This document shows positions 14,886-28,709 of a stretch of DNA of 40,489 nt, one piece after another. Both the position numbers and the translations under genes were made by a program. Position 1 is the stretch's first letter; each line of letters opens with the position of its first letter. The notes under the pieces are model-generated. The model was given only the letters and a program-made list of their open reading frames with translations, did not search any database and was not told where the DNA came from. This DNA is from a virus: IMG/VR virus record IMGVR_UViG_3300025018_000051, positions 1-40,489 of that record; one strand, given 5' to 3'.

Positions 14886-17531
14886 TCATTTTTCCTTCTG
14901 GTCTAAAACCTTGTGAATTGTGTTCATTTTTTCGAGAGCCCGAACCAGTATCTTTTCTGAAATAGATCCAGGCGCCACGAAAATTTCTGCCGTAACGACA
15001 TTCTCTTGACCAAACCTGTCTAACCGGGAAACTGCTTGTTCATTCTGTGCAGGCACCCAATCAGGTTCAGCCAAATAGCACCGGGAACAAACCTTCTGTA
15101 AACCATCCAAGCCGGTGCCCGCTGCCTGGATATTACCTATGAACACGCGCACCTTATCGTCATTCACAAAATCGTCAACGGCTTTTTCTCTTGCAGCCGG
15201 AGATTTTCGTCCGTCGATCCGAACGGTTCCAAATCGGGACAATTGCTGCTCAAAGATTTCTAACACGTCGATATGCCATCCAAAAATCGCTAGCTTTTCG
15301 TCCGAACCTTCGAGAAAATCCTTGGCGTATTCGGCAATCTGCGGAGCAAGAGCGGTTCCCATCAATCGCCGCGCTTCGGCAATATGTCCGAGAATTTCAA
15401 AATCTTTCGTGGTCTGTACATCGTCAATTGAGATACCTAGCAAATCCTCTGCATCGAGCGCGGATTTCACAGATCCGTTTTCCTCACAGCGCACAATGGC
15501 GTAACGTGGCGGCTTCATGAATTTCAGTACGTCTTTCTTTTCATGCCGTGCCATGATGTTGACCCTCAGCCGGTTTTGCAATTCCTGTTCGAGCGATGTG
15601 CTTTCCAGCTTGAAGCGTTTACCCTCGATCGTTTTCATATCGGCTTGCCGGTTGTAGCGCTCCTTGAATTTTTCCTCGCTGGCAAAGTCAATTGCCTGCC
15701 AATCGAAAAACCGGAAAAGCACATACGCCTCGGATGGACGGTTCAAAAGCAAGGTTCCGGTCAAAGCCAAATGTTCGCGGCAATGTCCTGCTATGGCTTT
15801 CATCTTGTGTTCACCGTGATGATATTCGCCGCGGGAATTGCCAATGATCGCGCGCGTTGTCAGTGCATTTATGTTCTTCATCTTGTGAGCTTCATCGCAA
15901 ATCAGAACGTCCCATTCATATTTTGAGATTGCGCGAATGATCGCCGGATTTCTCGCAGTGTCGTAGCTAAGTATCTGGTAATGCGCGGTCGGATGAATAC
16001 CGTCCTTGACCTTGAGCATGGTCGAAACCTTGACCATCGGGATAGTTGACCATGCCTTTATCTGCGCAGCCCATTGCAGCCGCACCGACGCTGGCACGAT
16101 CACAAGCACCCGCTGCGCCTCACGCTCGTTGCAATAAGCAATTGAGGTCGGCGTATTGTGCGTGAGAGTATATCCACGAGTTACAAACAAGCCCCGAGGA
16201 TCTGAAATTTTGATGCAGCGTTGGGATTCCTCTCCGTCCTGCACAATTTCAGAAACCGCCAATTTGATATTGGAAGGACGCCATTGTGCGGCTTTACGAG
16301 ACAAATTGAAGGGGCAGAAGTGAGTCTTCACATTAACCTGATAGTCTATACCCTTACCGTCCGACCTTTCATAAACTCGCACTTTGGCCCAACCACCTAA
16401 AGACCTCACCAACTGCGCAACGTCCTGCGCCAACTGCGCAGACTTGGTGTGGTAGGTCGTCCGATTGCGAATACACGATCCGTCAGTGTCCATAAGGCCC
16501 GAGAGCAAGTCCATTCGCTGACTGATTGAGCCCATGAAATAGATTTCAGGGATGAAACGGTCAGGACTTTTGACGTTCAATCCGAGAGCCTTAATCTTAT
16601 GATAAAATGCTGCGTCTTTAGTCGGTTTGGAAATTGCATATTGCGGACAGGCAGGATGCCTGTTTTCGTTGAAATGAAAATCAGAAGGTAAATACTTTTT
16701 TGCATTTTCGATAACTTCCGCATCAATATCCGGTGTCGAGATTGCAATTCTTGTTCCAGTGAGTGAACCATCACCAATCAATGCCCCAAGCAAATACGGG
16801 TGTATGTCAAAAGGTATTGGAGCATGGTCGATAGGCTGGACCAAGGGAACATAGAACCGTGCTATCCGGCGAGATAATCCGTTACGTGTCCCTCCACCGA
16901 CAGTCAGACCCCAATCCATAATTTGTTGAGTGGTCAAAACTTCTGTCTTAAAACTATGACCTCCACGTCGCTCGACCTCCCACAAATGTTCAGCATCGCA
17001 TCGAACATATCGACCGTCTGAAAAGATCACTTTCCAGACGGTGCTTTTTTGCGGTGGATATACTGCCTCGACCTGAACAGGCTTCCCGTCATGTCCATAG
17101 ACCCAATCACCTGCCGACAATTCTGCATTTTCCACCCAGCCCTTAGGTGTCAAAACAGGCTCGGAAACAGGCAACCGCTTCCCAAGTCCGGGTTGATCAC
17201 CGTTGATCCCGCCTTTCCGGTCCAGCAAATAATCAAGCGTGGCTTTCTGATAATCCCATAATTCGCAGCCTGGTGGAAGTTTCGCAGTGCCGATACCATC
17301 GAGAGCTCGCGATGCGTCGATCTTCTTGCGATAGGCGCCGAGATTGGGAAGGTCTTTGTCCGCCAGATCAGCAACAGAATAGGGATTGTTCGACCACAAC
17401 ACAGCTTCATGCCGGCTGCTCGCGCTCGTGGAAAATACGAGCCCGCGATAGGCCATGATACCGGCAATTTCCTGCTTGCGGGCAATCGGCACTCGCAAAA
17501 TGAAATTAGGTCCGTTCTCCGAGACGTTCAT
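14886..17531 (-). CDS. SNF2-family helicase interrupted by an intein in the Walker-A loop
   Basis: GDQPGLGK / TPTSIAY (motif I split), LICDEAHKMKN (DEAH), LALTGTLLLNR, and the C-terminal helicase motifs FIGNIQAAGTGLDGLQ and QAVSRLDRFGQ. Confidence 0.9.
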   Translation of the reverse strand: MNVSENGPNFILRVPIARKQEIAGIMAYRGLVFSTSASSRHEAVLWSNNPYSVADLADKDLPNLGAYRKKIDASRALDGIGTAKLPPGCELWDYQKATLDYLLDRKGGINGDQPGLGKRLPVSEPVLTPKGWVENAELSAGDWVYGHDGKPVQVEAVYPPQKSTVWKVIFSDGRYVRCDAEHLWEVERRGGHSFKTEVLTTQQIMDWGLTVGGGTRNGLSRRIARFYVPLVQPIDHAPIPFDIHPYLLGALIGDGSLTGTRIAISTPDIDAEVIENAKKYLPSDFHFNENRHPACPQYAISKPTKDAAFYHKIKALGLNVKSPDRFIPEIYFMGSISQRMDLLSGLMDTDGSCIRNRTTYHTKSAQLAQDVAQLVRSLGGWAKVRVYERSDGKGIDYQVNVKTHFCPFNLSRKAAQWRPSNIKLAVSEIVQDGEESQRCIKISDPRGLFVTRGYTLTHNTPTSIAYCNEREAQRVLVIVPASVRLQWAAQIKAWSTIPMVKVSTMLKVKDGIHPTAHYQILSYDTARNPAIIRAISKYEWDVLICDEAHKMKNINALTTRAIIGNSRGEYHHGEHKMKAIAGHCREHLALTGTLLLNRPSEAYVLFRFFDWQAIDFASEEKFKERYNRQADMKTIEGKRFKLESTSLEQELQNRLRVNIMARHEKKDVLKFMKPPRYAIVRCEENGSVKSALDAEDLLGISIDDVQTTKDFEILGHIAEARRLMGTALAPQIAEYAKDFLEGSDEKLAIFGWHIDVLEIFEQQLSRFGTVRIDGRKSPAAREKAVDDFVNDDKVRVFIGNIQAAGTGLDGLQKVCSRCYLAEPDWVPAQNEQAVSRLDRFGQENVVTAEIFVAPGSISEKILVRALEKMNTIHKVLDQKEK
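16155..17177 (-). mobile_element. 341-codon intein with LAGLIDADG endonuclease domain, class-3-like (no Cys/Ser/Thr at position 1)
   Basis: Inserted between GLGK (Lys codon 17180-17178) and T (+1). It starts RLPVSEPVLTPKGW. Block B is CDAEHLW, LAGLIDADG motifs are YLLGALIGDGSL and LLSGLMDTDGS, block F is QRCIKISDPRGLFV, and block G is YTLTHN|T (Asn codon 16157-16155). Confidence 0.8.
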
Positions 17532-17740
17532 TATAGATCATATTCCCTTACTAATTCCTGCCCCATAATCGGGAGCGGACCTATCCAGCCTGCCACAGTT
17601 CCGGTGACAGGTTCCTTGATGTTCGAGAGCCAGCCTGTGCCGCCAGTAAGCCAAAAACGCACGACCGTAGGCACATCGACGCCGTGCATATAGCAGACAT
17701 AGTGCCCTGTTTCCTTCGGATTGCCTGTCTGGATTTTCAC
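17531..17740 (-). CDS. DUF551-like small protein (paralog of 18784..18981)
   Basis: The GTG start overlaps the TGA of methyltransferase frame B (GTGA). The product is Trp-rich and reads ...VAGWIGPLPIMGQELVREYDL, compared with ...ISQWFGPLPTAQGYDL in the paralog. Confidence 0.55.
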   Translation of the reverse strand: MKIQTGNPKETGHYVCYMHGVDVPTVVRFWLTGGTGWLSNIKEPVTGTVAGWIGPLPIMGQELVREYDL

Positions 17741-18306
17741 AAATCATACTCCAATTTCGTCATTGATTTCTTTGACGACTTCGCAGAACGTTGCCGCCGT
17801 TTCCGCATCGAGCGCGTTTCCGTAGGCGCGCAATCGTCCCACTCTTTGGGAAGCCTCATTAACCAGCGGGAATGTGCCGGGTTCAACCGGCCTCCACTTT
17901 CCATCCCGGCAGTAGAGCCAGTCAACAAGCGTCCGTCCGAGCATAGGCGGATCGGTCCTGTCAGGATTGCCGCATGATTGAGTGTGATGTTCCGTGTCTT
18001 GAAATCCGGTGACGGGTGTCGCAAGCAATCGTTCGTCGTCGTCGGCCATCCTGCTAGTTGTGCGGTCATCTGAATGTCCGAGACGCAAATCCCCATTGAT
18101 CTGCCTGTCTTGGCTACTGACTTTTTCTTGCGTTCCAAAAATTGCTCTGGCGTCCCGTTCGCTGGATTGCTCACCGATGTCGGCCAACCCGCCAGCACCG
18201 CTTGCCTCGGAAGCTGATCCAGCCTGGTCCGCCCATCCTCGCACCGGGTCACCATTCCCGGCGTATCCTTCCAATCGCGTGCCGAAGCTGTCACCCATCC
18301 CGACAA
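17737..18306 (-). CDS. methyltransferase target-recognition/C-terminal region encoded in the +1 frame relative to 17744..18787 (ORF open up to 18714; expression mode unknown)
   Basis: SGWVTASARDWKD, AVLAGWPTS, AQLAGWPTT, LTGSTAGMESGGRLNPAHSRWLMRLPKEWDDCAPT. I recall these as the hallmark variable region/C-terminus of a proteobacterial phage C5-MTase family. It ends LEYDL plus the GTGA junction cassette. A possible TTG start at 18306 lies 7 nt after AGAGG. Confidence 0.5.
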   Translation of the reverse strand: MSGWVTASARDWKDTPGMVTRCEDGRTRLDQLPRQAVLAGWPTSVSNPANGTPEQFLERKKKSVAKTGRSMGICVSDIQMTAQLAGWPTTTNDCLRHPSPDFKTRNITLNHAAILTGPIRLCSDGRLLTGSTAGMESGGRLNPAHSRWLMRLPKEWDDCAPTETRSMRKRRQRSAKSSKKSMTKLEYDL

Positions 18307-18787
18307 AATAAAGCCTCTGTCTGATGTGCGCACCGTCGAACCCCGCAGCGCACAAATCGCTTGCCCCAAAGGCGTATCCCGTTCCTTCCAAGTCAGCTTG
18401 TACAAGATCGAGCCATGCGAGCGCGCTTGCAACTTGCTCTCCAACGATCGTTGAAGGTCGGCACTGCTCAATGAGATTGGACCAGTAAGGCCACAGGTGA
18501 CGTTCATCATCAAATCCTTTTTGTTTTCCGGCATTGCTGAAAGGCTGGCACGGACAAGAACCTGTCCAGATCGATTGATCATCTGGCCACCCTGCACGGC
18601 GCAAAGCGTGTGACCAAACCCCAATTCCCGCAAAGAAATGGCATTGCGTAAATTCCAGCAACTCGAACGCTTCCACGTCCTGAATTTTCCGTTCATCCAC
18701 GATCCCCGGCGCAATATGTCCCGCAGCGATAAGATTGCGCAGCCAGTCCGCTGCGAAAGGGTCGGGTTCGTTGTACCATGCTGTCAC
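17744..18787 (-). CDS. DNA (cytosine-5) methyltransferase, frame A (catalytic motifs)
   Basis: Motif I CHFFAGIGVW, motif IV GSCPCQPFSNAG, motif VI-like IVGEQV, motif VIII HIRQRLYFVG, and C-terminal LRAYGNALDAETAATF (motif X-like). The ~150 codons in between are G/D/R/S-rich with no motif. The GTG start is in a GTGA overlap with the upstream gene. Confidence 0.8.
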   Translation of the reverse strand: MTAWYNEPDPFAADWLRNLIAAGHIAPGIVDERKIQDVEAFELLEFTQCHFFAGIGVWSHALRRAGWPDDQSIWTGSCPCQPFSNAGKQKGFDDERHLWPYWSNLIEQCRPSTIVGEQVASALAWLDLVQADLEGTGYAFGASDLCAAGFDGAHIRQRLYFVGMGDSFGTRLEGYAGNGDPVRGWADQAGSASEASGAGGLADIGEQSSERDARAIFGTQEKVSSQDRQINGDLRLGHSDDRTTSRMADDDERLLATPVTGFQDTEHHTQSCGNPDRTDPPMLGRTLVDWLYCRDGKWRPVEPGTFPLVNEASQRVGRLRAYGNALDAETAATFCEVVKEINDEIGV

Positions 18788-18981
18788 AGATCATATCCTT
18801 GCGCGGTCGGGAGAGGTCCGAACCATTGCGAGATATCGGAAAGTTGCCAAGTGTAATCCGTGCCGGGATAAAACCAGGTTTCCTTGACTGCATCCCATTC
18901 GAGTACCTTCCAATCATCACGCACCATCGCGCAATAAAGACCCGCATATCCTGGATCCGTGTAACCGTGTCGCAACGTCAC
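18784..18981 (-). CDS. DUF551-like small protein (paralog of 17531..17740)
   Basis: The GTG start overlaps the TGA of the MerR-like gene (GTGA). 65 aa, Trp/Tyr-rich, ending GPLPTAQGYDL. Confidence 0.55.
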   Translation of the reverse strand: MTLRHGYTDPGYAGLYCAMVRDDWKVLEWDAVKETWFYPGTDYTWQLSDISQWFGPLPTAQGYDL

Positions 18982-19313
18982 AAATCATACTCCTGCACTC
19001 GCAAGGCTTCGGGCTTCGGTAATTGCTCACCTAGTCGCACCGCAGCCCGCGCTTGATCGGAGAGCCTTGTCAGGATCACCTCATAGGCTTCTGGTCCCCA
19101 TTCTTCCAACATCTGTTTGATTTCATCGAGCGACCAGTTTCCGAATTGTGCCGCAGCGATGACCTTGGCTTTATCCAGTTGCTCAGGCGTGTAGCGCCGC
19201 GTCCCTCCTTCAGAACGCTCAACCTTACCCAAAAGCCCTTGATCTTCCCAATGCCGAATACCTCGCCTTGACGTGCAGCCGGCGCGCGTCATTTCCTCAA
19301 CGCTGTGCATCAT
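18978..19313 (-). CDS. MerR-family HTH protein
   Basis: EMTRAGCTSRRGIRHWEDQGLLGKVERSEGGTRRYTPEQLD fits the MerR N-terminal HTH/wing pattern. AAGGAA lies upstream of ATG19313. Confidence 0.7.
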   Translation of the reverse strand: MMHSVEEMTRAGCTSRRGIRHWEDQGLLGKVERSEGGTRRYTPEQLDKAKVIAAAQFGNWSLDEIKQMLEEWGPEAYEVILTRLSDQARAAVRLGEQLPKPEALRVQEYDL

Positions 19314-19450
19314 TTTGGAATTCCTTCTTCATGAAATTTCCGTTGCCTTCCTGCCTTATCCTCAAGCCTCCACCAGGGGCAAATCATGTAATCATCGAGG
19401 TAAATACCTATCCTGGTTTTGATTTTTCCATTCTTTGACCGCTGCAAGAC

Positions 19451-19954
19451 CTAAACATTCAATTCCCTTTCTATCTGATCCAGTGTTGCTTTCTTCCAGT
19501 AATCGAAACGCTCGACAATGAAGTATTTTCGTAGGTTCTCGCTTTGAGACAGTCTTGGCAACCCGGCAAAATCCAGTTCGTATTCCAGCCTGCGGGCTGA
19601 TTTGAGTATCTGCGGCCACCTGTCTGTATGACCCACTGCAATCGCCAAAGCGGGCCATAATGGTGCTAATTCGTCAGCAGTGTAGAAAGGGCGAACCTGC
19701 CAAAGGGGAAGCCATGCTTTCGCTGCTACGGCGTTCGGATCGGTCGGGTTATTCTTCGCCCACGACGCAACCTGATTTTTCCAATGGACTACAATCCCCT
19801 TATTATGCCCCTTTACGAACATGGCCTTTACGATTGCGTGGGTTTCCCCTTTCCAGAATTGTCTTCCGCTCATGTTACAATCGCCCGATAAACCAACCAT
19901 CGCAAAATCGGAATTAGCGTATGTATCCTTTTCCCTTTCTGAAATTTTCGCCAT
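19451..19954 (-). CDS. hypothetical protein (start uncertain; ORF open to TTG20020)
   Basis: Coding-like 167-189 aa ORF. The first ATG is at 19954 (MAKISEREKD...). No motif recognised. It is followed by a 137-nt gap. Confidence 0.5.
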   Translation of the reverse strand: MAKISEREKDTYANSDFAMVGLSGDCNMSGRQFWKGETHAIVKAMFVKGHNKGIVVHWKNQVASWAKNNPTDPNAVAAKAWLPLWQVRPFYTADELAPLWPALAIAVGHTDRWPQILKSARRLEYELDFAGLPRLSQSENLRKYFIVERFDYWKKATLDQIERELNV

Positions 19955-20054
19955 CCTGGAACCAACATACAAAATTGTAAATTCATTCGCCACCACGCCA
20001 TACCTGATACAGGATCGCAAGGTAGGGGATACCCTTCAATGTCAATATCACGCT

Positions 20055-21947
20055 TCACAAATCATACTCCTGCTTTGGAATTGCCCATTTACCTTGTGTT
20101 GGTCGTAGGAATGTCAGTGCGGTATTTTTCGACAGTTCCCGCTGAATGATTTTCTTATCCGCTCCGGTTTTACCAGCAATCTCGCTTATCATGACGCTAT
20201 CGCTTGTCTCACCGCCAAGTCCTTCGAGCACTCGCAAAACTTCCTCGATACTCGCCCAAGGATAACGACTTTTCGTCTCTTTGCCCTTGCTCGTTTCTTC
20301 CAGCGCTTCGGTGCGTTCAAGCACAATCGACTGAGCAAACTCTTTAGTCACAAAATAATGTATATCGTCCCCTACGTCAGCATCTTTCTGTTTTTTGACC
20401 TGCAAAGATGTTCCACCAAGTTTCAGTTTCGTGTTTATCACAGTATCCATGTTAGCATAGAACGCGCTCGATCCCCGCGCACCCTTCGATTGATCCTTAC
20501 CCGTGTGGTGAACCGCAAGCACGAAACACTCATAGTATCGTGACAGGCTCTCCATGAAATTAGTTATCATGCTCGCGTCTTTAGCGCTGTTCTCGTCCAT
20601 GCCGGTTATTAGCCTCGTGAGCGTGTCAATCACGATTAGCGCAGGCTTGGCCTTCAATTCGGACAGATCGGCTTTGACGCACTCCCATGCGTCCGTATCG
20701 GTATAGAAAGGCACTCGGTCCTTAATCAAAAACCTGTGATCGTTCTTAAATTCTATGTCCTGCCATTCCATCCATGCCGGCCAGCGTTTCTTGGCGGTTG
20801 CAACCGGCCCCTCGCCAGCAAGGAAAAGCACGTCATTCTTGACAGGTGGAGCTCCCCATTGCCCAGGGATACCGAACGCCAGGCAAAGCGACATATCGAG
20901 CGCGAGGAAGGATTTATAGCTGCCACTCTCGCCGTAAATCATCCCGATACCAACCGAGGGGACCATGCCAGGGATAAGCCAGGTCGGGTCGCTTACGTTT
21001 TCAGCATAGTCATGCAGAAATTGGATTTTGTCGCGCGATCGGTCGGCTGGTGTTTCAGCTTCCCGCCCTGCAAAAGATGCAAAAGCCTCACTGTTTGTCT
21101 GAAACCCTTTTGCACCTTTCTCGGTATCCTCACCGTATTCCGCAGCATTTTGCACGATCTTTTCGAGTTCGTAATCATCCCAAGGCGGCGAGCAATGCGG
21201 GTTCCAGTGTTCAATTAAAAGATCAAAACACATGGCAGGGGATATGGCCTTATCGAGAACCGAAGCCGCGACCCTGAATGCAGTATCGTTTCCGCCCTTA
21301 CCTTCAATCGAGACACGTCCTGCCTCTACGTAGTTTTTAAGGAGGTCAATCGCCCATGACACATTACGCGGCTGGTCGGCATCGGGATTTTTCTCAAGCC
21401 CTTTGGTTTCGGTTTTCTTGCGCTCTGGTACGAGCACTTTCATACAATCAGGCATTGGCAGGATCGAACCGCCTAGCAGCGTATAAGCACCATCAACGCG
21501 CCCAGGACCGGCAACGGTCTTTGATCCCGGCGCCACCACGTATCCGCCTGAGACTAGCTTGCCATCGCGCCAGAAACCCCCGCGCGTGTCGATCCCTTCG
21601 GCAATGCGGCTAGCCGTGCTTGGCCCCTCACCTCTGAAATAGACGTGCAAGCCCCCTTTGGGCGTCCGCACCTGCAAAGCTGCGCCGACCGCAGCGGCAA
21701 CGTCTGCATCGCGCTTTAAGAGGTTTTTCCACCATGACAGGCCGGCGGGGTCAATGTCGAATATGAACAGTCCAGAAAGTCCGCAGGCCACCGCCCAATT
21801 GAATGACGGATTGAGGCTCTGCCATTCGTCCAACTTGGCCGGATCGCTGCTAGCGTCTTTCCAGCCGTTTGCGGTTGCAGGGTCTTTCGTCCCCGGCTGG
21901 CAGGGAAAAAGCTTGCAACCTCTCAATTCATCCGGTAAATCCTGCAC
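20055..21947 (-). CDS. bifunctional primase-polymerase (Prim-Pol) / PriCT / RepA-DnaB-like (AAA_25-type) ATPase
   Basis: LFPCQPGTKDPATANGWKDA...GLFIFDIDP...TPKGGLHVYF...GIDTRGG...GYVVAPGS (Prim-Pol), GGNDTAFRVAASVL...HWNPHCSPPW (PriCT-like), Walker A GESGSYKS, and Walker B-like ALIVIDTL. GTG start with AAGGA-N6. Confidence 0.85.
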   Translation of the reverse strand: MQDLPDELRGCKLFPCQPGTKDPATANGWKDASSDPAKLDEWQSLNPSFNWAVACGLSGLFIFDIDPAGLSWWKNLLKRDADVAAAVGAALQVRTPKGGLHVYFRGEGPSTASRIAEGIDTRGGFWRDGKLVSGGYVVAPGSKTVAGPGRVDGAYTLLGGSILPMPDCMKVLVPERKKTETKGLEKNPDADQPRNVSWAIDLLKNYVEAGRVSIEGKGGNDTAFRVAASVLDKAISPAMCFDLLIEHWNPHCSPPWDDYELEKIVQNAAEYGEDTEKGAKGFQTNSEAFASFAGREAETPADRSRDKIQFLHDYAENVSDPTWLIPGMVPSVGIGMIYGESGSYKSFLALDMSLCLAFGIPGQWGAPPVKNDVLFLAGEGPVATAKKRWPAWMEWQDIEFKNDHRFLIKDRVPFYTDTDAWECVKADLSELKAKPALIVIDTLTRLITGMDENSAKDASMITNFMESLSRYYECFVLAVHHTGKDQSKGARGSSAFYANMDTVINTKLKLGGTSLQVKKQKDADVGDDIHYFVTKEFAQSIVLERTEALEETSKGKETKSRYPWASIEEVLRVLEGLGGETSDSVMISEIAGKTGADKKIIQRELSKNTALTFLRPTQGKWAIPKQEYDL

Positions 21948-21986
21948 TCGCTGTCCTTATCCCGTCAGCGCATCCGCCAAAGATAG

Positions 21987-22020
21987 CCCGGAGAACCCGC
22001 CAAGGTTCTCCGGGTTTTTT
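21987..22020 (+). terminator. perfect hairpin + T6 (rho-independent terminator shape on the plus strand; A-tract on the minus-strand side)
   Basis: CCCGGAGAACC (21987-21997), 6-nt loop, GGTTCTCCGGG (22004-22014), then TTTTTT. It lies between the early gene block and the primase gene, which are both on the minus strand. Confidence 0.5.
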
Positions 22021-22108
22021 GTTTGTTATCATGTGGAAGAGGCTGCACCCCTCTTGCCGAAACCCGACACATAAACCCGCTCGCTCATTGATAGCAAGCT
22101 AAAGAGTT

Positions 22109-22459
22109 TCACAGGTCATATTCCAGCGACCAGCGACCAGACTCAAACGCAGCGCGCAGCTTGTCGGCAATGTCGATCAGTTCAGTCCCGTTAGTATGTC
22201 TTACGTCTTGACAATGTTCCTCGACAATTTCGCGAATTTCATCAAGTAAATGGATTTCACCCTGCACCCATTCCGCAATCTCTGCAGGCGACGCATCGAC
22301 CCATGGAGATAAATATGTAATATCTTCGATTGCCCCAGCGTTGGCTTCTGCATCGTCTTGAGCGTCCAGCAGTTCGAGCAATTCGGGAGCCCATTCGCAG
22401 CCTCGCAATCGCCGCGCTTCAAGCCATTCTGTTACGTTCAAATACATGTATTTTGTCAT
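22109..22459 (-). CDS. strongly acidic early protein
   Basis: 116 aa with ~27 Asp/Glu versus ~9 Lys/Arg by hand count. It ends WSLEYDL. ATGA overlap with the upstream gene. Confidence 0.6.
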   Translation of the reverse strand: MTKYMYLNVTEWLEARRLRGCEWAPELLELLDAQDDAEANAGAIEDITYLSPWVDASPAEIAEWVQGEIHLLDEIREIVEEHCQDVRHTNGTELIDIADKLRAAFESGRWSLEYDL

Positions 22460-23397
22460 GGTTTACCTCCTGACACAGGTTTGTCAAAACCGTGAATGCG
22501 TGATTGCGCCTCAAGCAAATCAAGAATAGCGAATGTTTCTTCACCTAGAGGGGTTCCACCTCTAGTTCTTTGCCAATGCTCGCGCGCCTTAGCAAAACTG
22601 AAATAACGACATCCTGCTATAATGCGCGGACCATCTGGCGTTGGTGCAACCGTAAAAGTGTAATTATCGCTGCGAATGGCAGTTAAATTGATTTTAGATA
22701 TTCGCGCATCGCCGTAGACATGTGCATTGCCATAGACCCTCGCATCGCCGAAGACCTGTGCATCGCCATAGACCCTCGCATCGCCGAAGACCTGCGCATT
22801 GCCGGAAACCTGTGCATTGCCGGAAACCCGAGCATCACCGTAGACCTTCGCATCGCTGGAAACCCGTGCATTGCCGGAAACCCGTGCATCGCCGGAAACC
22901 TGCGCATTGCCGTAGACCCAGGCATTGCCGGAAACCTGTGCATCGCCGGAAACCTGTGCATTGCCATAGACCCTCGCATTGCCGAAGATCCGTGCATTGC
23001 CGTAGACCCTCGCATCGCCGGAAACCTGTGCATCGCCGAAGACCTGTGCATTGCCGGAAAGCCAAGTATCGCCGGAGATATGTGCATCGCCAGAAACCTG
23101 CGCATCGCCGTAGACCTGTGCATTGCCGAAGACCCGTGCATTGCCGAAGACCCGTGCATCGCTGGAAACCCGTGCATTGCCGGAAACCCGTGCATTGCCG
23201 AAAACTCTCGCATCGCCGTAGACCCAGGCATTGCCTAAGCGTGAAAGGCAAGCTTCTTTCTCAATCCATCCGCCAAGATTACCCGCAAAAACATTGATCT
23301 CTTGCATGTCTTTCACAGCACGTATCCGGTGCAACGTAATGCCAAACCAATTCCTGGTTTCGCCGGTCGCCTCAAATTTTTCATTCTTAAATGTCAT
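22456..23397 (-). CDS. hexapeptide-repeat (left-handed beta-helix-like) early protein
   Basis: N-domain (FGITLHRIRAV...GNLGGWIEKEACLS), then 30 uninterrupted [GS][ND][AT]x[VIL][SYF] hexads, then a C-domain (RSDNYTFTVAPTPDGPRIIAGCRYFSFAKAREHW). Confidence 0.8.
   Translation of the reverse strand: MTFKNEKFEATGETRNWFGITLHRIRAVKDMQEINVFAGNLGGWIEKEACLSRLGNAWVYGDARVFGNARVSGNARVSSDARVFGNARVFGNAQVYGDAQVSGDAHISGDTWLSGNAQVFGDAQVSGDARVYGNARIFGNARVYGNAQVSGDAQVSGNAWVYGNAQVSGDARVSGNARVSSDAKVYGDARVSGNAQVSGNAQVFGDARVYGDAQVFGDARVYGNAHVYGDARISKINLTAIRSDNYTFTVAPTPDGPRIIAGCRYFSFAKAREHWQRTRGGTPLGEETFAILDLLEAQSRIHGFDKPVSGGKP
22696..23235. repeat. 18-bp periodic coding repeat x30
   Basis: 540 nt of phased GGnAAyGCnCrnGTnTmn-type units. 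All frames on both strands are open across it, which produces four spurious ORFs in the track. Confidence 0.9.
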
Positions 23398-23764: not shown

Positions 23765-24144
23765 AGTTCCACCCCTTCCAAAAGTTTGAGAAATTCAGGA
23801 GACAATTCCCCTTCGTCAGTAAAGACAGGTTCACAAATGTCTCCGGCTTCATCTTCCACCCATAGAGGCCAGTGGTCACGAGAATTAAGCGGACGTGACA
23901 GTGCAAACCTTTTGCCTGCAATACGAAAAGGGACATTTGCAATAGTCAAAGAGCCATCATTAGAATCTTGCACGATTTGGAAAGTTTCACCACTATGCTC
24001 GCCCGGATCAATTCCGTTCGTCACCTTGCCAAGTGTTGCCTTGTGCCCTCGCGTTTGATCTAGCAGAATCCACAAGCGCCCATAGCACTTGAGCAAGTCC
24101 GCCTCGTTGAAAAGGTCGCGAGGGATGACTCTAAAATAGGTCAT
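23761..24144 (-). CDS. hypothetical early protein
   Basis: 127-aa ORF with ATGA overlaps on both sides. It ends LEGVEL within a repeated junction cassette. Confidence 0.55.
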   Translation of the reverse strand: MTYFRVIPRDLFNEADLLKCYGRLWILLDQTRGHKATLGKVTNGIDPGEHSGETFQIVQDSNDGSLTIANVPFRIAGKRFALSRPLNSRDHWPLWVEDEAGDICEPVFTDEGELSPEFLKLLEGVEL

Positions 24145-24614
24145 GATTCCACCCCTTCCACACGATTAAACCATTCGAGCCGCGGCGCATCTGGCAAAGA
24201 TGCAATCTTGTCCGGAGTAATCCAGGTTTCGCGGTCAAGAATATCGACCGCAGCAACGTAGCAGCGCGGTTCGGAAAATTCACCGGATCGCACCTGTACA
24301 AACTGATTAGTAATTGAACCGCTCGTAAATTCACACATGAAAAAACCCATTGCCCTTTTGCGGTACATCGGAGGTAAGGCGTTCAGCATTTCATTGTAAA
24401 ATTCTGGTGTGATCTCTCGCAAAGGAGTTTCACTGAGAAAATAAGCTTTGTGCTGAGCCTCAAATTCGGATTCAGTCAAAATGTCGTAAAACTTGCCTGT
24501 TTTTGTTTCTCGCTCGCATTTGACCGGATATGCCTCGCGCTGTGTTTTGTGCCATGACCACAGCCAAGGTTTCCCGCGCTCAACCACTGCAAATTTCAAG
24601 TCATCAATGTTCAT
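24141..24614 (-). CDS. hypothetical early protein
   Basis: 157-aa ORF. GAAAGGAAAAG lies upstream of ATG24614. It ends VEGVES within the same junction cassette. Confidence 0.55.
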   Translation of the reverse strand: MNIDDLKFAVVERGKPWLWSWHKTQREAYPVKCERETKTGKFYDILTESEFEAQHKAYFLSETPLREITPEFYNEMLNALPPMYRKRAMGFFMCEFTSGSITNQFVQVRSGEFSEPRCYVAAVDILDRETWITPDKIASLPDAPRLEWFNRVEGVES

Positions 24615-24631
24615 ATTCTTTTCCTTTCTAA

Positions 24632-24648
24632 ATGTTCCGTAACGTCAC
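24632..24648. promoter_or_regulatory. 17-nt motif copy 4 (ATGTTCCGTAACGTCAC)
   Basis: Same motif as the three copies at 26401, 26450 and 26594. It overlaps the stop codon of the HTH gene 24645..25235. Confidence 0.45.
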
Positions 24649-25235
24649 AAATCCAGTTTTGCAACAGGTTTCTTTTCTGGTCGCTGATAAACGGTTTTTC
24701 CGTCCTCAATAAACCAGAATGGTTGAAAATCAGGATGCGCTCGGCATTGCCACACTGCAGCCGTGACCTTGCGCGATAGTCCATCAATTTGATGATCCGG
24801 CACATTCGCCAGCAAACGAACCGCCAAATAAGCATGATCATGCTTCGCCCGGTTATCAAATCCATGATCGCACATGATGAAGCTGCAAAGCCAATTCACG
24901 AGCTTTGTGACCGCGGCTGCATCTTTGCGCGCTGCTAGCTCGATCGCGCTAGAGACTTGCCAAGGAGCGCCGCTAGCGAGCGCATCACCTAGCTTGTCTA
25001 ATGTCTCGCTTATCTCAAATTCCCATTGCGTGAGGGATTGCCTGACTTTGGGATATTTGAGCAAATGGAATTGCTGCAATGCAGACAAACCGTTACCTTT
25101 TTGCATGTTCAGTCGGATGGCATCGGCAATCGGATCGCTGGCTTTTGTCGCCTTGAGAAAACCCAGCTTGTCCAATTTTTTGAGTGTTCGCAGCGAGAGC
25201 CCTGACAATTGCGCGATTTTATAAATATCAGTCAT
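24645..25235 (-). CDS. HTH (MerR-like N-terminus) early regulator candidate
   Basis: MTDIYKIAQLSGLSLRTLKKLDKLGFL resembles a MerR-type HTH. 196 aa, ending AKLDL. Confidence 0.5.
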   Translation of the reverse strand: MTDIYKIAQLSGLSLRTLKKLDKLGFLKATKASDPIADAIRLNMQKGNGLSALQQFHLLKYPKVRQSLTQWEFEISETLDKLGDALASGAPWQVSSAIELAARKDAAAVTKLVNWLCSFIMCDHGFDNRAKHDHAYLAVRLLANVPDHQIDGLSRKVTAAVWQCRAHPDFQPFWFIEDGKTVYQRPEKKPVAKLDL

Positions 25236-25459
25236 GCAAAAGCCTCTCGATCCTGAAAAATAACTGACAAGGCGTCGGCATAGGATAGCTCCGGCATTCG
25301 GTCAGTCAGCCGCGCAAATTCATCGCGAAATTCGCCGGCTGCGTCACCTTGAAAAAACACACTTTCACCGCTTGGTTTGTGATCGATCGAATAAGCTAAC
25401 CCATTACCCCAAGACGTGACGCACCATTCCGGCAAATCGTGAATGATATAAGAGCGCAT
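25232..25459 (-). CDS. hypothetical 75-aa early protein
   Basis: ORF with an ATGA overlap onto the downstream gene. No motif recognised. Confidence 0.5.
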   Translation of the reverse strand: MRSYIIHDLPEWCVTSWGNGLAYSIDHKPSGESVFFQGDAAGEFRDEFARLTDRMPELSYADALSVIFQDREAFA

Positions 25460-25757
25460 TGGTTAAACCCTTTCAATGTTAGAATTAGACGAATTAGGCA
25501 GCCTAAGCCCCCTAATTCTAAATGTCAATCCTGATAATTCAGACTACAAGAATGGCGGTTTTCTGCCATTCTTTCAGAATTAGGCACAGTCAGGACCTTG
25601 TATCGTGCGCGCGCGTAAGAGAGACGATGCTTCTCATCGCCCTCCGCTTCGCGCGAGATCGCACCTTCGCCCTACGGCTACGGCGCTGCGCTCCGCTCCG
25701 TTGCTCGCTTTGATGATTGAAAAATAATTTTGACAACCTTTCAATTTTTCAAATTCC

Positions 25758-25808
25758 TGAATTACTCAAATGCCGGGATTTTCTAATCTCTGGCATTTGA
25801 GTAATTCA
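25758..25808. repeat. 17-bp perfect inverted repeat with 17-nt loop (terminator/attenuator or operator)
   Basis: TGAATTACTCAAATGCC (25758-25774) pairs with GGCATTTGAGTAATTCA (25792-25808). It lies 12 nt downstream (minus sense) of the stop of 25820..26002. Confidence 0.8.
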
Positions 25809-25819
25809 CCTTCGCCCCA

Positions 25820-26002
25820 TCAATCCTCGTAAAACTCCGCTTGCCCGATCCGGTTTCCGTTGTGATCCTGGATAATTGTCACTGCGCTTATTCCGCATTC
25901 CAGCCTGTCCGCTAAATGCCGCAAGAGGTGTGCAGTTTCACTGCATAGGTTTTCGTCAAATGCGCCATTGTCCATGTCAAAGCTGATAATCATTCTCGAC
26001 AT
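25820..26002 (-). CDS. hypothetical 60-aa early protein
   Basis: ATG26002 is preceded by GGGAAGGAATTGAGA. The product begins MSRMIISFDMDNGAFDENL... The track's longer 26035 start lacks an SD. Confidence 0.45.
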   Translation of the reverse strand: MSRMIISFDMDNGAFDENLCSETAHLLRHLADRLECGISAVTIIQDHNGNRIGQAEFYED

Positions 26003-26219
26003 TCTCAATTCCTTCCCTATTTTTGATAATCTCAAAACTGTCCGCCTTTAGAGACTTATTCATAAAATAACCACGCTCCACATAAACCGGAATAATTTTG
26101 ATTAGGTGACGCTCTGCCCGTTCCAGACTGTCAAAAATTCCATGCACCGCTAATGGGTCCGCTTTTCCACGATGTAATAAGTCATTCTCAATTCCTTCCT
26201 TGTGATATTTGATAAGCAT
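25977..26219 (-). CDS. hypothetical 80-aa early protein
   Basis: ATG-initiated ORF containing two copies of the GGAAGGAATTGAGAATG cassette (KEGIEN / REGIEN). Coding status is moderate. Confidence 0.4.
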   Translation of the reverse strand: MLIKYHKEGIENDLLHRGKADPLAVHGIFDSLERAERHLIKIIPVYVERGYFMNKSLKADSFEIIKNREGIENVENDYQL

Positions 26220-26322
26220 AAAGCTTCTGCACCCGCTTCTGATCTCGCAAATGCCGCCAGGCTGTCAATTCGTCAAAACCAAATTCCTCGCAAAGCTGTT
26301 CAATTTTTGTTTGGTGAATCAT
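26191..26322 (-). CDS. possible first early ORF (43 aa)
   Basis: ATG26322 is preceded by GAGAAGGGAA. The translation is MIHQTKIEQLCEEFGFDELTAWRHLRDQKRVQKLYAYQISQGRN. Below the track cut-off. Confidence 0.3.
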
Positions 26323-26367
26323 TTTCAAATTCCCTTCTCGTTTACGATAATCTCTTATCGCACTCAA

Positions 26368-26395
26368 ACCTTACCAAATGATTAAAGCCGGTCAA
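26368..26395 (-). promoter_or_regulatory. candidate sigma70-type early promoter (leftward)
   Basis: On the minus strand: TTGACC (26395-26390), 16-nt spacer, TAAGGT (26373-26368). It lies ~45 nt upstream of the first early ORF and is flanked by a 17-nt motif copy. Confidence 0.35.
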
Positions 26396-26400
26396 GTTAA

Positions 26401-26417
26401 ATGTTCCGCAACGTCAA
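26401..26417. promoter_or_regulatory. 17-nt motif copy 1 (ATGTTCCGCAACGTCAA)
   Basis: Consensus ATGTTCCRYAACGTCA. It lies 5 nt upstream of the candidate early -35. Confidence 0.45.
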
Positions 26418-26449
26418 TTTGTATCAGGCGAACCTTGGAAGATTTACTG

Positions 26450-26466
26450 ATGTTCCACAACGTCAC
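26450..26466. promoter_or_regulatory. 17-nt motif copy 2 (ATGTTCCACAACGTCAC)
   Basis: Direct repeat of copy 1, 49 nt away. Confidence 0.45.
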
Positions 26467-26487
26467 CTAATTAATCCCGGACAGAAA

Positions 26488-26536
26488 AAGGGACCCGTAG
26501 GTCAAAAAATTGAGGGCCGGGGGGTCCCTTCTTTTT
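26488..26536. other. hairpin flanked by A5 and T6 tracts (weak bidirectional terminator shape)
   Basis: AAGGGACCC (26488-26496) pairs with GGGTCCCTT (26522-26530), then CTTTTTT. The loop is 25 nt, long for an intrinsic terminator. Confidence 0.3.
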
Positions 26537-26593
26537 TACGCGGCGTTGACCGGGCCAGTGCGACATACCGAATAAACCTATTTTTCCCATCCC

Positions 26594-26610
26594 ATGACGT
26601 TACGGAACAT
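26594..26610. promoter_or_regulatory. 17-nt motif copy 3, inverted orientation (ATGACGTTACGGAACAT)
   Basis: The reverse complement, ATGTTCCGTAACGTCAT, matches copy 4 at 16 of 17 positions. Confidence 0.45.
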
Positions 26611-26836
26611 TCCAATCCATCCCCAGATTTCCCATTCCGGCACACCATCATCAAAACCTTTGCAATCTATTCCAGTCCTTTCTAATCCATCCCTATGTCC
26701 GTGGTCATTGGATCGAAGCAAGGCTGTCCAACCGCTTTAGCACTGGCTTCGATACAGGTTGCACGGCACATGACCGAAAATACCAATCAAATGAATAGAA
26801 GAACGTAAATCATGGGATATTTCACAGAAGATCAAA

Positions 26837-26865
26837 TTCAAACCGACCGCATCCTGCAATATTTT
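26837..26865 (+). promoter_or_regulatory. candidate rightward promoter A
   Basis: TTCAAA (26837-26842), 17-nt spacer, TATTTT (26860-26865). A transcript from here would reach the 27014-27058 terminator after ~185 nt. Confidence 0.3.
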
Positions 26866-26950
26866 GAATACTAGCACTTGCCGGATTTCCTGCCTCAAAA
26901 CTGTTCGCTACTCTCACCAGGAAACCGATCACGAGACTTCCCCTAAAAGA

Positions 26951-26979
26951 TTGACACCGACCTAAACCTCGGTTAGGTT
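26951..26979 (+). promoter_or_regulatory. candidate rightward promoter B
   Basis: TTGACA (26951-26956), 17-nt spacer, TAGGTT (26974-26979). A transcript from here would be ~75 nt up to the terminator. Confidence 0.3.
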
Positions 26980-27013
26980 AGGCTATTCATTCATCCCCCG
27001 AATGAATAACCTA

Positions 27014-27058
27014 GACCCGCATGAGCCTTATTTCCCTTCGGTTCATGCGGGTCTTTTT
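27014..27058 (+). terminator. strong rho-independent terminator immediately upstream of the rightward (late) operon
   Basis: GACCCGCATGAGCC pairs with GGTTCATGCGGGTC (11 perfect bp plus 3 more including one G-U), 12-nt loop, then TTTTTAT. Confidence 0.75.
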
Positions 27059-27121
27059 ATGTCTTGACCGCATATGTGCAATCTGTCATGCACTTGCCGA
27101 CAATCCGAAAAGGTCAAGCAA

Positions 27122-27274
27122 ATGAACCGCATCGAAAAACTCCAGACAAAACTCAAAGCCCGAGAGAACCAATCCGGTTTCGAGAAAAACTGCGAAGCAA
27201 TAAGGGCGGAAATTTCCAGATTGACGACCTTCCCGAAGCAACCGTGCTTTGGCCTCGAAAACAAGGGAACATGA
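27122..27274 (+). CDS. small coiled-coil-like protein (50 aa), first gene of the rightward operon
   Basis: ATG27122 follows AAAAGG. The product begins MNRIEKLQTKLKARENQSGFEKNCEAIRAEISRL... Its TGA overlaps the next ATG (ATGA). Confidence 0.4.
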   Translation: MNRIEKLQTKLKARENQSGFEKNCEAIRAEISRLTTFPKQPCFGLENKGT

Positions 27275-27648
27275 TTCCGGTGAACCATCTACCTCTTGAC
27301 CTGTCCCTCCTCGATGCCAAGGGGAGCGGAAATATGGTATCTTCTGGACCTACGGTCGATTTTCTCAAGCGTTTGAAGCGGCTCGATGCCGAATACGTCA
27401 CACCCCGCGACGTATTGTGCCTCTACTGCGTTCTCAGGAAGCCTGGAATGTCGAGACAGGACTTGTGCCATGTAATCGGTGTTCTCAACGCCTCCAACGT
27501 GCTCTCAAACGTCACACGGCTGATTCGCTGGGGCTTCATGGAGGATCGCAGAGTGGACATTCGCCGGGCAAGTCCCTCGATGCTCTACGTCCTTCCTCCC
27601 GGTATCGAATTTTGGAACTCCATCGACCCGGGACACCTGGATCTATGA
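27271..27648 (+). CDS. winged-helix (MarR-like) DNA-binding protein candidate
   Basis: VTPRDVLCLYCVLRKPGMSRQDLCHVIGVLNASNVLSNVTRLIRWGFMEDRR fits a wHTH pattern. AAGGGA lies upstream of ATG27271. It ends GHLDL. Confidence 0.5.
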   Translation: MIPVNHLPLDLSLLDAKGSGNMVSSGPTVDFLKRLKRLDAEYVTPRDVLCLYCVLRKPGMSRQDLCHVIGVLNASNVLSNVTRLIRWGFMEDRRVDIRRASPSMLYVLPPGIEFWNSIDPGHLDL

Positions 27649-27839
27649 GCACTCCTTGCTTCCTGTGCGGCGTCAACTCGTGGACCTCCTGCAAACACCG
27701 GGATGCTTACAGGAAACCTCCCAAGGAAATGGCGGAGCGAGACTTGAGCGCAATCCACCGCAAAGCGAGCGGAGGAGGTAAATACTCAATTCGTCCTTCA
27801 TCCACTAAGGGACTCAATTTCAAGAACCGCAAAAAATGA
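27645..27839 (+). CDS. hypothetical basic 64-aa protein
   Basis: ATGA overlaps on both sides. The product begins MSTPCFLCGVNSWTSCKHRD... Confidence 0.45.
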   Translation: MSTPCFLCGVNSWTSCKHRDAYRKPPKEMAERDLSAIHRKASGGGKYSIRPSSTKGLNFKNRKK

Positions 27840-28063
27840 GCGAACCTGTCGTGAATTTGGTTGGACATCTTGGCGATTCTGATATGGTCGGGTATATCCG
27901 CGCAGTAGCAGACCGTTACGGGCGCGGCAAAATCAGTGAGATTGTAGTAATCTCACACAATCGGATCCATTATTCCTATGAGCAGCGCGGTTCATGGGAA
28001 GATCGGTGGAGACTGGGCGGCGCAATCGAGAACGCAAAGACACACGCGATAGCAGAGCAATGA
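27836..28063 (+). CDS. hypothetical 75-aa protein
   Basis: ATGA-coupled ORF. No motif recognised. Confidence 0.5.
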   Translation: MSEPVVNLVGHLGDSDMVGYIRAVADRYGRGKISEIVVISHNRIHYSYEQRGSWEDRWRLGGAIENAKTHAIAEQ

Positions 28064-28395
28064 CTGACGAAACCAAAGACTTGCTGAAACCGACACGTGA
28101 TCTGGCACGTCTGCCAACGATCAGCGCCGAGCAGTATCAGCATGTGGGCCGCTATGCTGGCGCTCTCGTCATGTCCTGTTTCGAGCAAATCGGAGGTCTG
28201 CACCGTATGGCGACATGGGCCGACGGCAACCCGACCGATTTCTACACCAAGCTGTTTCCCAAGATGATTTCCCGAAGTCAGCAAGTCGATGTGAGCGGGA
28301 CACTGACAATCGACGACGCTATCAACCGCCTTGAACGCATGAACGCTACGGTTGAAGGAGAGTTTGAGGAAATCGAACACGAATACGATTTGTAA
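28060..28395 (+). CDS. hypothetical 111-aa protein (possible small terminase subunit, by position only)
   Basis: ATG28060 overlaps the upstream TGA. It ends EIEHEYDL. No TerS motif is visible, so this is a positional guess. Confidence 0.35.
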   Translation: MTDETKDLLKPTRDLARLPTISAEQYQHVGRYAGALVMSCFEQIGGLHRMATWADGNPTDFYTKLFPKMISRSQQVDVSGTLTIDDAINRLERMNATVEGEFEEIEHEYDL

Positions 28396-28415
28396 ACGGC
28401 TTAGGAGAACAGGCC

Positions 28416-28709
28416 ATGATACCAAAACACGGTTGGAAGGACATGGATAGCGCACCCAGGGACGGGACTATCATCATGGTTAAATCCCATATGTATAACA
28501 AGCCGGATCAGGGATTGCAGGTGCAACCGGGCCACTGGTTTTGCGACGACAAGGGCAAGAATTGGGGCTGGAAGCGTCCTTGGGCCCCCGGCTGGACCGT
28601 CTATGCGAGCGGCTGGATGACTTTTGAAGATTTCAAGCAAGCACAGGCTAGGGAAACTGAACCGAACCTGCCGATGCCAGATGCAAAAACACCGGAATTT
28701 GATTTATGA
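28416..28709 (+). CDS. DUF551-like protein
   Basis: GWKDMDSAPRDGTIIMV... followed by a Trp-rich segment, as in DUF551-type phage proteins (from memory). GGAG lies upstream of the ATG. It ends PEFDL with an ATGA overlap. Confidence 0.5.
   Translation: MIPKHGWKDMDSAPRDGTIIMVKSHMYNKPDQGLQVQPGHWFCDDKGKNWGWKRPWAPGWTVYASGWMTFEDFKQAQARETEPNLPMPDAKTPEFDL

Follow-up and report, generated by a model that had tools for sequence, protein, structure and literature searches.

Many unrelated proteins encoded by the IMG/VR virus record IMGVR_UViG_3300025018_000051 end in the same three residues. We analyzed positions 1 to 40,489 of this record, a whole contig of 40,489 nucleotides (nt) that we call the window, and its gene content indicates an uncultured tailed phage. 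The shared ending, Phi-Asp-Leu-COOH (Phi-D-L, where Phi is Y or F and sometimes L, H, or W), is selected as a peptide and is a clade-specific short linear motif. The glutamate that often precedes it at position -4 (the final Leu being -1), together with the G of codon -5, forms the GGAG Shine-Dalgarno (SD) sequence of the next gene and is mostly a nucleotide-level feature. It is very probable that these two layers, a peptide Phi-D-L and an SD-derived Glu, occur together. For the whole statement, which adds that Phi-D-L docks to one common partner, we put the probability at roughly 0.5.

With our own gene calls, 10 of the 49 genes in the window end in DL and 7 of the 49 end in [YF]DL. A comparison with shuffled sequences, proposed in an earlier reading of the window (the original prediction), placed these endings far above chance: the shuffle means were 0.25 for DL and 0.016 for [YF]DL, and none of the 20,000 shuffles attained the observed counts. 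DL has a frequency of 0.0046 inside the proteins, and DL followed by a stop at seven short nongenic frames is at about chance level. The endings are concentrated, with nine of the 10 DL-ending genes among the 23 genes at 17.5 to 28.8 kb and only one among the 26 elsewhere (Fisher P = 0.003). It is strongly supported that the shared ending is a real regularity, far beyond chance. A recurrent Phi-D-L ending across a phage early proteome is apparently undescribed so far; our literature searches returned nothing relevant on EYDL or on common C-terminal motifs of phage proteins, and no phage described with a fifth of its early proteome sharing one C-terminal tripeptide.

All eleven open reading frame (ORF) ends listed in the original prediction were located as it said, with matching peptides, codons, and stop codons (Table 1). 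Two assignments had to be revised. Seven YDL products had been named and all seven endings are present, but the LEYDL ascribed to the cytosine methyltransferase (MTase) belongs to an overlapping ORF in the +1 frame, and the MTase itself ends in EIGV. Four further products had been listed as ending in FDL or LDL. The ends at 28416..28709 and 24645..25235 stood, whereas that at 27271..27648 looks like chance: its four orthologues end in ELKL, IKPA, ELKP, and VVPA, and because they lack the tail, HLDL is probably a coincidence outside the phenomenon. For the fourth, 35671..35964, no orthologue was present in the fetched loci. It had also been claimed that 28060..28395 has no overlapping downstream start, and this was confirmed; the next start is ATG 28416, 20 nt downstream and with its own SD (TAGGAGAA). 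Examples of the 12- to 15-residue tails are LRPTQGKWAIPKQEYDL and LPKPEALRVQEYDL.

The ending recurs in related phages. Our comparison set consisted of seven IMG/VR loci and one contig from a metagenome-assembled genome (MAG), whose primase-helicases are 67 to 76% identical to that of the window. Each of the eight loci has 4 to 10 ORFs with the ending, and DL is the top C-terminal dipeptide of long open frames in each of them (joint-top in one). The tail is carried by 54 of the 253 called genes in the window and seven nonredundant IMG/VR and MAG loci, and three later contigs gave 6/23, 4/23, and 7/23 tail bearers. Within the early/replication half of these genomes, some 20% of the proteins bear it. 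All of the 120 best orthologues of the primase-helicase (at least 67% identity) end in [ED][YFH][DN]L. Ortholog clustering showed complete retention for the primase-helicase, the MerR-like protein, the 69-amino-acid (aa) protein, the 196-aa protein with its LDL variant, the 28060 group, and the acidic protein (Table 1). The tail is also found on many singleton, nonorthologous accessory genes, and in L015 it closes both a Dam methylase (KGYDL) and the C5 MTase (KEFDL). Codons, positions, and charges were counted in a set of 55 nonredundant tails.

In this set, -3 is Y, F, or L in 54 of 55 tails and -1 is L in all 55. The codons behind these residues vary freely. Asp is encoded 29 times by GAT and 26 times by GAC (50:50 in the genome), all six Leu codons are used, Tyr and Phe appear as TAT, TAC, TTT, and TTC, and the codons at all three positions follow the synonymous usage of the genome. 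The stops are TGA (45), TAA (7), and TAG (3). The peptide-level conservation proposed in the original prediction therefore holds for the last three residues, given this synonymous variation, the retention of the tail where no start overlaps, and the lack of any excess of the nucleotide pattern TWYGAYYTN elsewhere. That pattern has 125 matches in 309 kb, both strands counted; 50 are in frame directly before a stop, and the remaining 75 equal the chance expectation of 75. In the same 309 kb, no match was found upstream of a start codon outside the in-frame-before-stop context.

The motif is tied to the stop codon and not to the start of the next gene, since it stands at 4-nt overlaps, at 1-nt overlaps, and before gaps of 20 to 330 nt. 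The original prediction had proposed looking at orthologues in which the overlap is changed, and there the tail is kept with the downstream start 20 to 330 nt away. In the primase-helicase orthologues, this distance is 58 to 332 nt. The 28060 group has gaps of 20 to 22 nt in four of its five members, with E, Q, or T at -4, and the orthologues of 24645..25235 have 30 to 137 nt to the next start, with K, N, S, M, or G at -4. In the window, the gene of the acidic protein is followed by the next start only 161 nt downstream, past a 13-bp hairpin, and the -4 residue of its orthologues is E or Q.

These results bear directly on the possibility that the junction is purely a nucleotide-level signal, or a linker for the exchange of gene cassettes, with the peptide as a passive by-product. 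We regard this as highly improbable, and for Phi-D-L it is already largely refuted: it accounts for the Glu and not for the tripeptide. Several observations would suit it, namely GGAG 8 nt before GTG or ATG in 30 to 31 of 34 overlapping cases, the presence of the tail on nonorthologous accessory genes, and an identical 16-mer, GGAGTATGATTTGTGA, that occurs three times in the window and also ends the MTase in another frame. Synonymous choices at five sites are likewise more alike within genomes (2.97) than between them (2.61; P = 0.003). However, at four sites every change is synonymous and tracks each genome's GC content and codon usage. The motif keeps its place relative to the stop, matches to the pattern that are not in frame before a stop are no commoner than chance and never fall in the leader ahead of a start, and intergenic ribosome-binding sites of the same genomes differ (TAGGAGAAC..ATG). 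Three related candidates were rejected. Gene conversion of junctions within a genome is not needed, the small similarity excess being explained by genome GC and codon usage. Pairing of TGATC in the spacer with the 16S 3' end was rejected by reasoning, as it would be lost in the GAC and TTC variants, and it is also disfavored by the lack of excess outside the C-terminal frame. A prfB-like +1 frameshift site (SD-UAU-CUU-UGA) differs in spacing and codons, and the Leu codons here vary.

The -4 residue behaves differently from the last three. Of the 34 tails with an overlapping next start, 31 have E there, compared with 9 of the 21 without overlap; in the latter, the residue is otherwise Q, K, N, or others, and GAA usage is genome-like. 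Before overlapping starts, GAG outnumbers GAA 23:8, while the genome prefers GAA 2:1. The base before this codon, the wobble position of codon -5, is G in 30 of the 34 overlapping tails, and GGAG or GGAA stands 8 nt before the overlapping GTG or ATG in 31 of them. Thus, of the -(E/G)YDL tail described in the original prediction, the last three residues are a peptide-level signal and the first is largely nucleotide driven. Overlapping gene pairs commonly have an intragenic SD (PMC6728339), and this known arrangement at 4-nt overlaps explains both the GGAG 8 nt before GTG or ATG and the predominance of TGA (PMC6728339). The SD here lies within the 5 to 10 nt before the overlapping start that characterize intragenic SD and termination-reinitiation junctions (ATGA, GTGA, or TAATG), which accounts for the Glu only. 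Phi-D-L, which stays without overlap and varies only synonymously, is left unexplained.

The two layers interlock through the Leu codon, whose third base is the first base of the overlapping start (GTGA or ATGA). Because the C-terminal Leu codon is fixed, GTG starts are in excess downstream of tail genes: GTG is used at 18 of the 29 four-nt overlaps that follow a tail gene and at 4 of the 41 that follow other genes (window and L001 to L008). The rare Leu codons CTA and TTA are used in 13 of 34 tails before overlapping starts, which creates an ATG start. In the window, the stop of the MerR-like gene overlaps the GTG start of 18784..18981 (GTGA), the AAGGA at the end of 18784..18981 is the SD of the MTase GTG start, and the TAA of 17531..17740 shares 1 nt with the ATG of the SNF2 helicase gene.

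A further possibility is that the last residues act in the ribosome as a nascent peptide or termination context, tuning termination or reinitiation on the coupled next gene. Such an effect at the amino acid level would likewise allow synonymous change. The tail is indeed enriched at overlapping junctions (33 of 103, compared with 12 of 102 distant ones, about 2.5-fold), the stop is TGA in 45 of 55 cases, and the SD sits at a fixed distance inside the motif. Yet the tail is fully kept where the next start is 137 to 330 nt away or past a hairpin, 70 overlapping junctions have no tail, and without an overlapping start TGA is similarly frequent in tail bearers (13/21) and other genes (64/129). A conserved Pro-rich stretch 7 to 15 residues upstream would also be unexpected for an effect at the peptidyl-transferase center. 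We consider this explanation quite improbable.

The residues before the tail give it the usual look of a short linear motif, with Phi-D-L at the tip of a Pro-rich, unstructured extension as judged from composition and modeling. Pro makes up 14.7% of positions -16 to -5, compared with a background of 5.1%, and stands at -7 in 20 of 55 tails. The AlphaFold2 model of the primase-helicase (mean predicted local distance difference test score [pLDDT] of 88) places a winged-helix-like domain at residues 567 to 622 near the end, and residues 628 to 630 have pLDDT below 50, are without secondary structure, and are not docked in cis. The last 12 residues of the 55 tails are Pro- and Lys-rich and not acidic, with a mean net charge of -1.5.

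We compared the tail with known C-terminal motifs. The C-terminal tails of T7 gp4 contact basic patches on the polymerase and raise processivity (PMC8472574). The likeness is a short, flexible C-terminal tail on the primase-helicase of a phage whose DNA polymerase is of family A and whose single-stranded DNA-binding protein (SSB) is gp2.5-like. In contrast, the T7 tails are strongly acidic and aromatic ended, while Phi-D-L is Leu ended with a charge of about -1.5 and is common to at least nine unrelated proteins per genome. By its sequence, Phi-D-L falls outside the acidic/aromatic class of T7 tails. The SSB and the DUF2800 exonuclease of this phage carry a second, T7/SSB-like class of tail that is distinct from Phi-D-L (Table 1). 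The tip of bacterial SSB (..DDDIPF) has the same acidic-hydrophobic-x-hydrophobic-COOH arrangement, which its partners recognize by the free carboxylate and the hydrophobic side chains, with E-[YF]-D-L spaced like D-I-P-F, but one SSB addresses many partners, whereas here many proteins carry the tip.

Beta-clamp-binding motifs and the PIP box offer another likeness, that of unrelated DNA transaction proteins sharing one short, often C-terminal motif for one hub; in eukaryotes, PIP-box clients include methyltransferases. They differ in that the motif here is strictly terminal and no clamp gene was seen in the window. The clamp-binding consensus, Q-phi-x-[L/M]-[F/L] or Q-phi-x-[L/M]-x-[F/L] (PMC11139829), was found in 0 of 55 tails, whether at the very end or elsewhere in the final 25 residues. 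The tails do show the Phi-x-Phi-COOH pattern of PDZ class II ligands (hydrophobic residues at -3 and -1 and a free carboxylate). Known bacterial PDZ readers are mostly periplasmic.

The distribution of the tail among more distant relatives indicates how it may have arisen. When 150 cluster representatives of primase-helicase homologues were compared, only the five nearest kept the tail (about 41 to 56% identity; one is a fragment), and it was absent from those below about 41% identity. In lineages beyond the comparison set, the tail bearers are the primase only in L019, the primase and the MerR-like protein in L020, and the primase, the MerR-like protein, and a 34-aa ORF in L010 (3 of 27 genes); L018 has three among six genes, and the next lineage out, L011, has none. 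Deeper lineages are known from contigs of just 2.7 to 4.7 kb, for which phyletic profiling is uninformative. Since the deepest tail-bearing lineages have the tail on few proteins, it appears to be an ancestral feature of the primase-helicase that other proteins gained later. By these comparisons, the tail is confined to this phage clade. The unrelated Erythrobacter phage R6L, whose host belongs to the Sphingomonadales, is not enriched for the ending (1 of 84 coding sequences ends in DL), and a host-wide signal was ruled out on this ground; the signal is therefore a property of the phage clade and not of the phages of the host order.

Docking to a common partner is favored because the tail is universal on the primase-helicase, where it is also oldest, and spread mainly to DNA transaction proteins. 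Most bearers of recognizable function act on DNA (helicase, methylase-related, and MerR-type proteins). In the proposed mechanism, the free Leu carboxylate and the aromatic side chain would fit one pocket on a shared partner, and unrelated proteins would thereby be gathered at one place. The tail, oldest on the primase-helicase, would later have been gained mainly by proteins of DNA transactions, such as MerR-type binders, the protein nested in the MTase gene, Dam and C5 methylases in relatives, and small accessory proteins. The favored partner would be that of the helicase itself in a T7-like replisome, i.e., the family A polymerase or its complex, and the tail would serve as a "tool-belt" address for replicating phage DNA. 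By analogy with T7 gp5, the polymerase would be a candidate receptor; it has no Phi-D-L tail of its own.

A stronger form of the docking hypothesis may be stated, and we hold it only tentatively. The clade might use Phi-Asp-Leu-COOH as a private "address code" that recruits proteins to a dedicated receptor on a clamp-less T7-like replisome or another phage-specific hub. Whatever protein has to work on replicating phage DNA, or close to it, would then gain the terminal tripeptide of the primase-helicase. The recruits would possibly be the helicase, the methylases, the MerR-type binders, and anti-defense-like accessory proteins. Such a code could be a phage-invented equivalent of the clamp tool belt, evolved while also encoding the next ribosome-binding site and start.

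Several points weigh against docking. No receptor was found among the window proteins scanned: 29 proteins (30 sequences, with both MTase frames) compared with Pfam gave no PDZ, TPR, or similar domain and no clamp-like domain. The polymerase may already be engaged, because T7-type tails are present on the SSB and the exonuclease. The Phi-D-L tail is only mildly acidic and Leu ended and so not of the T7 type. A MerR-like regulator or small accessory proteins would have no obvious need of the replisome. The roughly 2.5-fold enrichment before overlapping starts leaves room for some link to translational coupling. The host is only a guess, based on two MAG-binned contigs.

One protein was tried as a receptor and rejected. 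The 241-aa product of 14159..14884 (minus strand) has a homologue in the distant, few-tail L010 and probably one in the tail-less L011, so there is no phyletic correlation. It is mostly disordered, with 482 database homologues and no fold match in the PDB. Its conserved islands are DAHGHPW..LHASTK..TK.GLWRMK and EDDEFAAFR, and it has a confidently predicted C-terminal helical domain ending in AGIEFAG. The DAHG..WRMK module also occurs in 35671..35964.

The other function to be weighed is that of a C-terminal degron, in which a host or phage protease or adaptor would read Phi-D-L-COOH for timed turnover of early, regulatory, or takeover proteins. Like ssrA- and MuA-type degrons, the ending is terminal, short, and exposed, and it is predicted to be unstructured. 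The bearers cluster in the early and regulatory region (9 of 23 genes compared with 1 of 26) and include a transcription factor-like protein and many small accessory proteins. Bacterial C-termini are biased toward K and R, the opposite of Phi-D-L, and hydrophobic or aromatic C-terminal residues are underrepresented in bacteria and lower protein levels through faster degradation (PMC7246954); this effect would suit a degron equally well and is one more point against docking. On the other side, no ssrA-like ending (..[LA]AA-COOH) was found in the 55 tails, and the tail is universal on the primase-helicase, which is needed throughout replication, and present on a protein encoded beside the terminase genes. 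Proteins with acidic residues close to the C-terminus tend to be spared by the known kinds of bacterial C-terminal proteolysis, which also counts against a degron. The unrelated Sphingomonadales phage has no such ending, so a general host degron is not widely exploited. We judge the degron unlikely, but it is the leading alternative to docking.

The MTase gene deserves separate description, as it is probably read in two frames. Frame A encodes the C5 cytosine MTase, which is 50% identical end to end with that of Vibrio phage Marilyn; its TGA falls within the GGAGTATGATTTGTGA junction, and the same 16-mer closes the gene in the other frame. Frame B is open over 17737..18714, and we placed the start of its protein at ATG 18507/18510, where an SD (AAGGA) and the ATG are conserved in the clade. 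Databases hold more than 7,000 homologues of the frame-B protein, and PF00145 is absent from all of them. The frame stays open and is conserved in L003, L015 to L017, and Vibrio, Klebsiella, and Escherichia coli phages, with the motifs LTWKER.TP, GW.TP.ARDWKD, and LNP.HSRWLMGLP.EW. The tail is present in 15 of the best 120 homologues of the frame-B protein, all of them clade members; the remainder have basic S/K/R endings. Across five clade genes, the divergence at each codon position showed constraint in frame A only at nt 0 to 240, constraint at all three positions at nt 240 to 480 and 840 to 960, and a frame-B-like pattern at nt 600 to 780, which fits true dual coding at nt 240 to 480 and 840 to 960. 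Gene callers choose one frame or the other. In L015, frame A reads on to end in KEFDL and the nested ORF ends in MIYDL; both frames end in Phi-D-L because two tail-coding motifs sit back to back at 6560..6591 (..ATGATCTACGACCTGTGAAGGAATTTGATTTGTGA). Literature searches on overlapping frames in phage cytosine methylases returned no paper describing the nested ORF.

No close cultured phage relative was found in searches with window sequences, while databases hold hundreds of related metagenomic contigs of 40 to 46 kb and at least 1,400 primase homologues, many of them encoded on contigs of that size. Two of the related contigs were binned with Sphingomonadales/Erythrobacter MAGs, the sole and weak clue to the host. 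The clade is possibly podovirus-like, with genomes of about 40 to 46 kb, and may infect Sphingomonadales.

The window has other notable features. Intein or homing endonuclease insertions are likely, from domain content and length, in two replication genes. The SNF2 helicase (14886..17531, minus strand) has 881 aa and a LAGLIDADG domain, whereas its L010, L016, and L017 counterparts have 538 to 544 aa. At 980 aa, the DNA polymerase contains an endonuclease-like segment at residues 490 to 799 (phrog_93); in L015 and L017 its length is 663 to 665 aa. The hairpin at 21985..22016, within the 161 nt that separate the acidic protein gene from that of the primase-helicase, is a perfect, GC-rich 13-bp stem and could be a terminator, an attenuator, or a processing site; its T-run is better on the plus strand. 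The gene at 22456..23397 (minus strand) encodes a 313-aa YdcK-type beta-solenoid/bactofilin-like repeat protein, and its repeats (GNA.V.GDA.V) keep four further frames, spread over the two strands, open as ORFs of 138 to 191 aa.

Table 1. Tail-bearing genes, genes used for comparison, and modules of the window, with the loci carrying the nested ORF
Feature	Position	Strand	C-terminus	Tail in orthologues	Remarks
Primase-helicase (Prim-Pol/AAA_25)	20055..21947	-	KWAIPKQEYDL	9/9	Pfam Prim-Pol, AAA_25
MerR-family helix-turn-helix protein	18978..19313	-	LRVQEYDL	8/8	Pfam MerR_1
65-aa protein	18784..18981	-	PTAQGYDL	3/3	
69-aa protein	17531..17740	-	LVREYDL	7/7	GAA TAT GAT CTA TAA
Acidic 116-aa protein	22109..22459	-	RWSLEYDL	4/4 ([YF]DL)	Gaps of 137-161 nt in orthologues
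196-aa protein	24645..25235	-	KPVAKLDL	7/7 (LDL)	Leu variant
Small protein upstream of terminase genes	28060..28395	+	EIEHEYDL	5/5 (YDL)	TAA stop
97-aa protein	28416..28709	+	AKTPEFDL		ATGA overlap onto 28706..28957; L001 orthologue ends in QEFDL
125-aa protein	27271..27648	+	PGHLDL		
97-aa protein in structural module	35671..35964	+	PVVLDL		Shares phrog_29341 module with 14159..14884
Frame-B nested ORF (+1 frame)	17737..18510	-	KLEYDL		About 256 aa from ATG 18507/18510; phrog_1008, phrog_31772
C5 cytosine MTase, frame A	17744..18787	-	EINDEIGV		No Phi-D-L; Pfam DNA_methylase, phrog_363
Family A DNA polymerase	8811..11753	-			No Phi-D-L; Pfam DNA_pol_A, phrog_17
gp2.5-like SSB	11929..12657	-	EKTEEPAW		phrog_112, Pfam Enc34_ssDNA-bd; orthologues end in EPAF, DAAF, EEPAF, DVPF, EEIPF
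DUF2800 exonuclease	12730..13944	-	SPEQMGF		Orthologues end in LGF, AGF, QGF, SEF, EGF, LGW
T7-like replication operon	8-22 kb	-			Family A DNA polymerase, RuvC-like resolvase, gp2.5-like SSB, DUF2800 exonuclease, SNF2 helicase with LAGLIDADG insert, C5 methyltransferase, MerR-like protein, Prim-Pol/AAA_25 primase-helicase
Divergent early genes	~25.5-27 kb				
Structural and lysis module	29-40.5 kb and 0.3-7.9 kb				Terminase, portal, scaffold, major head protein, P22-like ejection protein, endolysin, spanin
Nested-ORF locus, window	17737..18787	-			
Nested-ORF locus, L003	14338..15520				
Nested-ORF locus, L015	5299..6591				
Nested-ORF locus, L016	9718..10981				
Nested-ORF locus, L017	4498..5554				
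Nested-ORF loci, L009, L013, L014					

The junctions of this phage clade are an example of layered coding, in which a 15-nt stretch is at once peptide motif, stop codon, SD, and start codon. The cost of this layering is measurable in the excess of GTG starts and the rare Leu codons. The finding also calls for caution in annotation: recurrent C-terminal residues at gene overlaps are usually put down to the SD, and here only the Glu can be. The logic of a shared terminal motif is a familiar one. Should Phi-D-L prove to be a common tag for docking or recognition, three terminal residues would mark the members of one interaction network and would group, in a large uncultured clade, about one-fifth of the proteins encoded in the regions examined, most of which have no known function.

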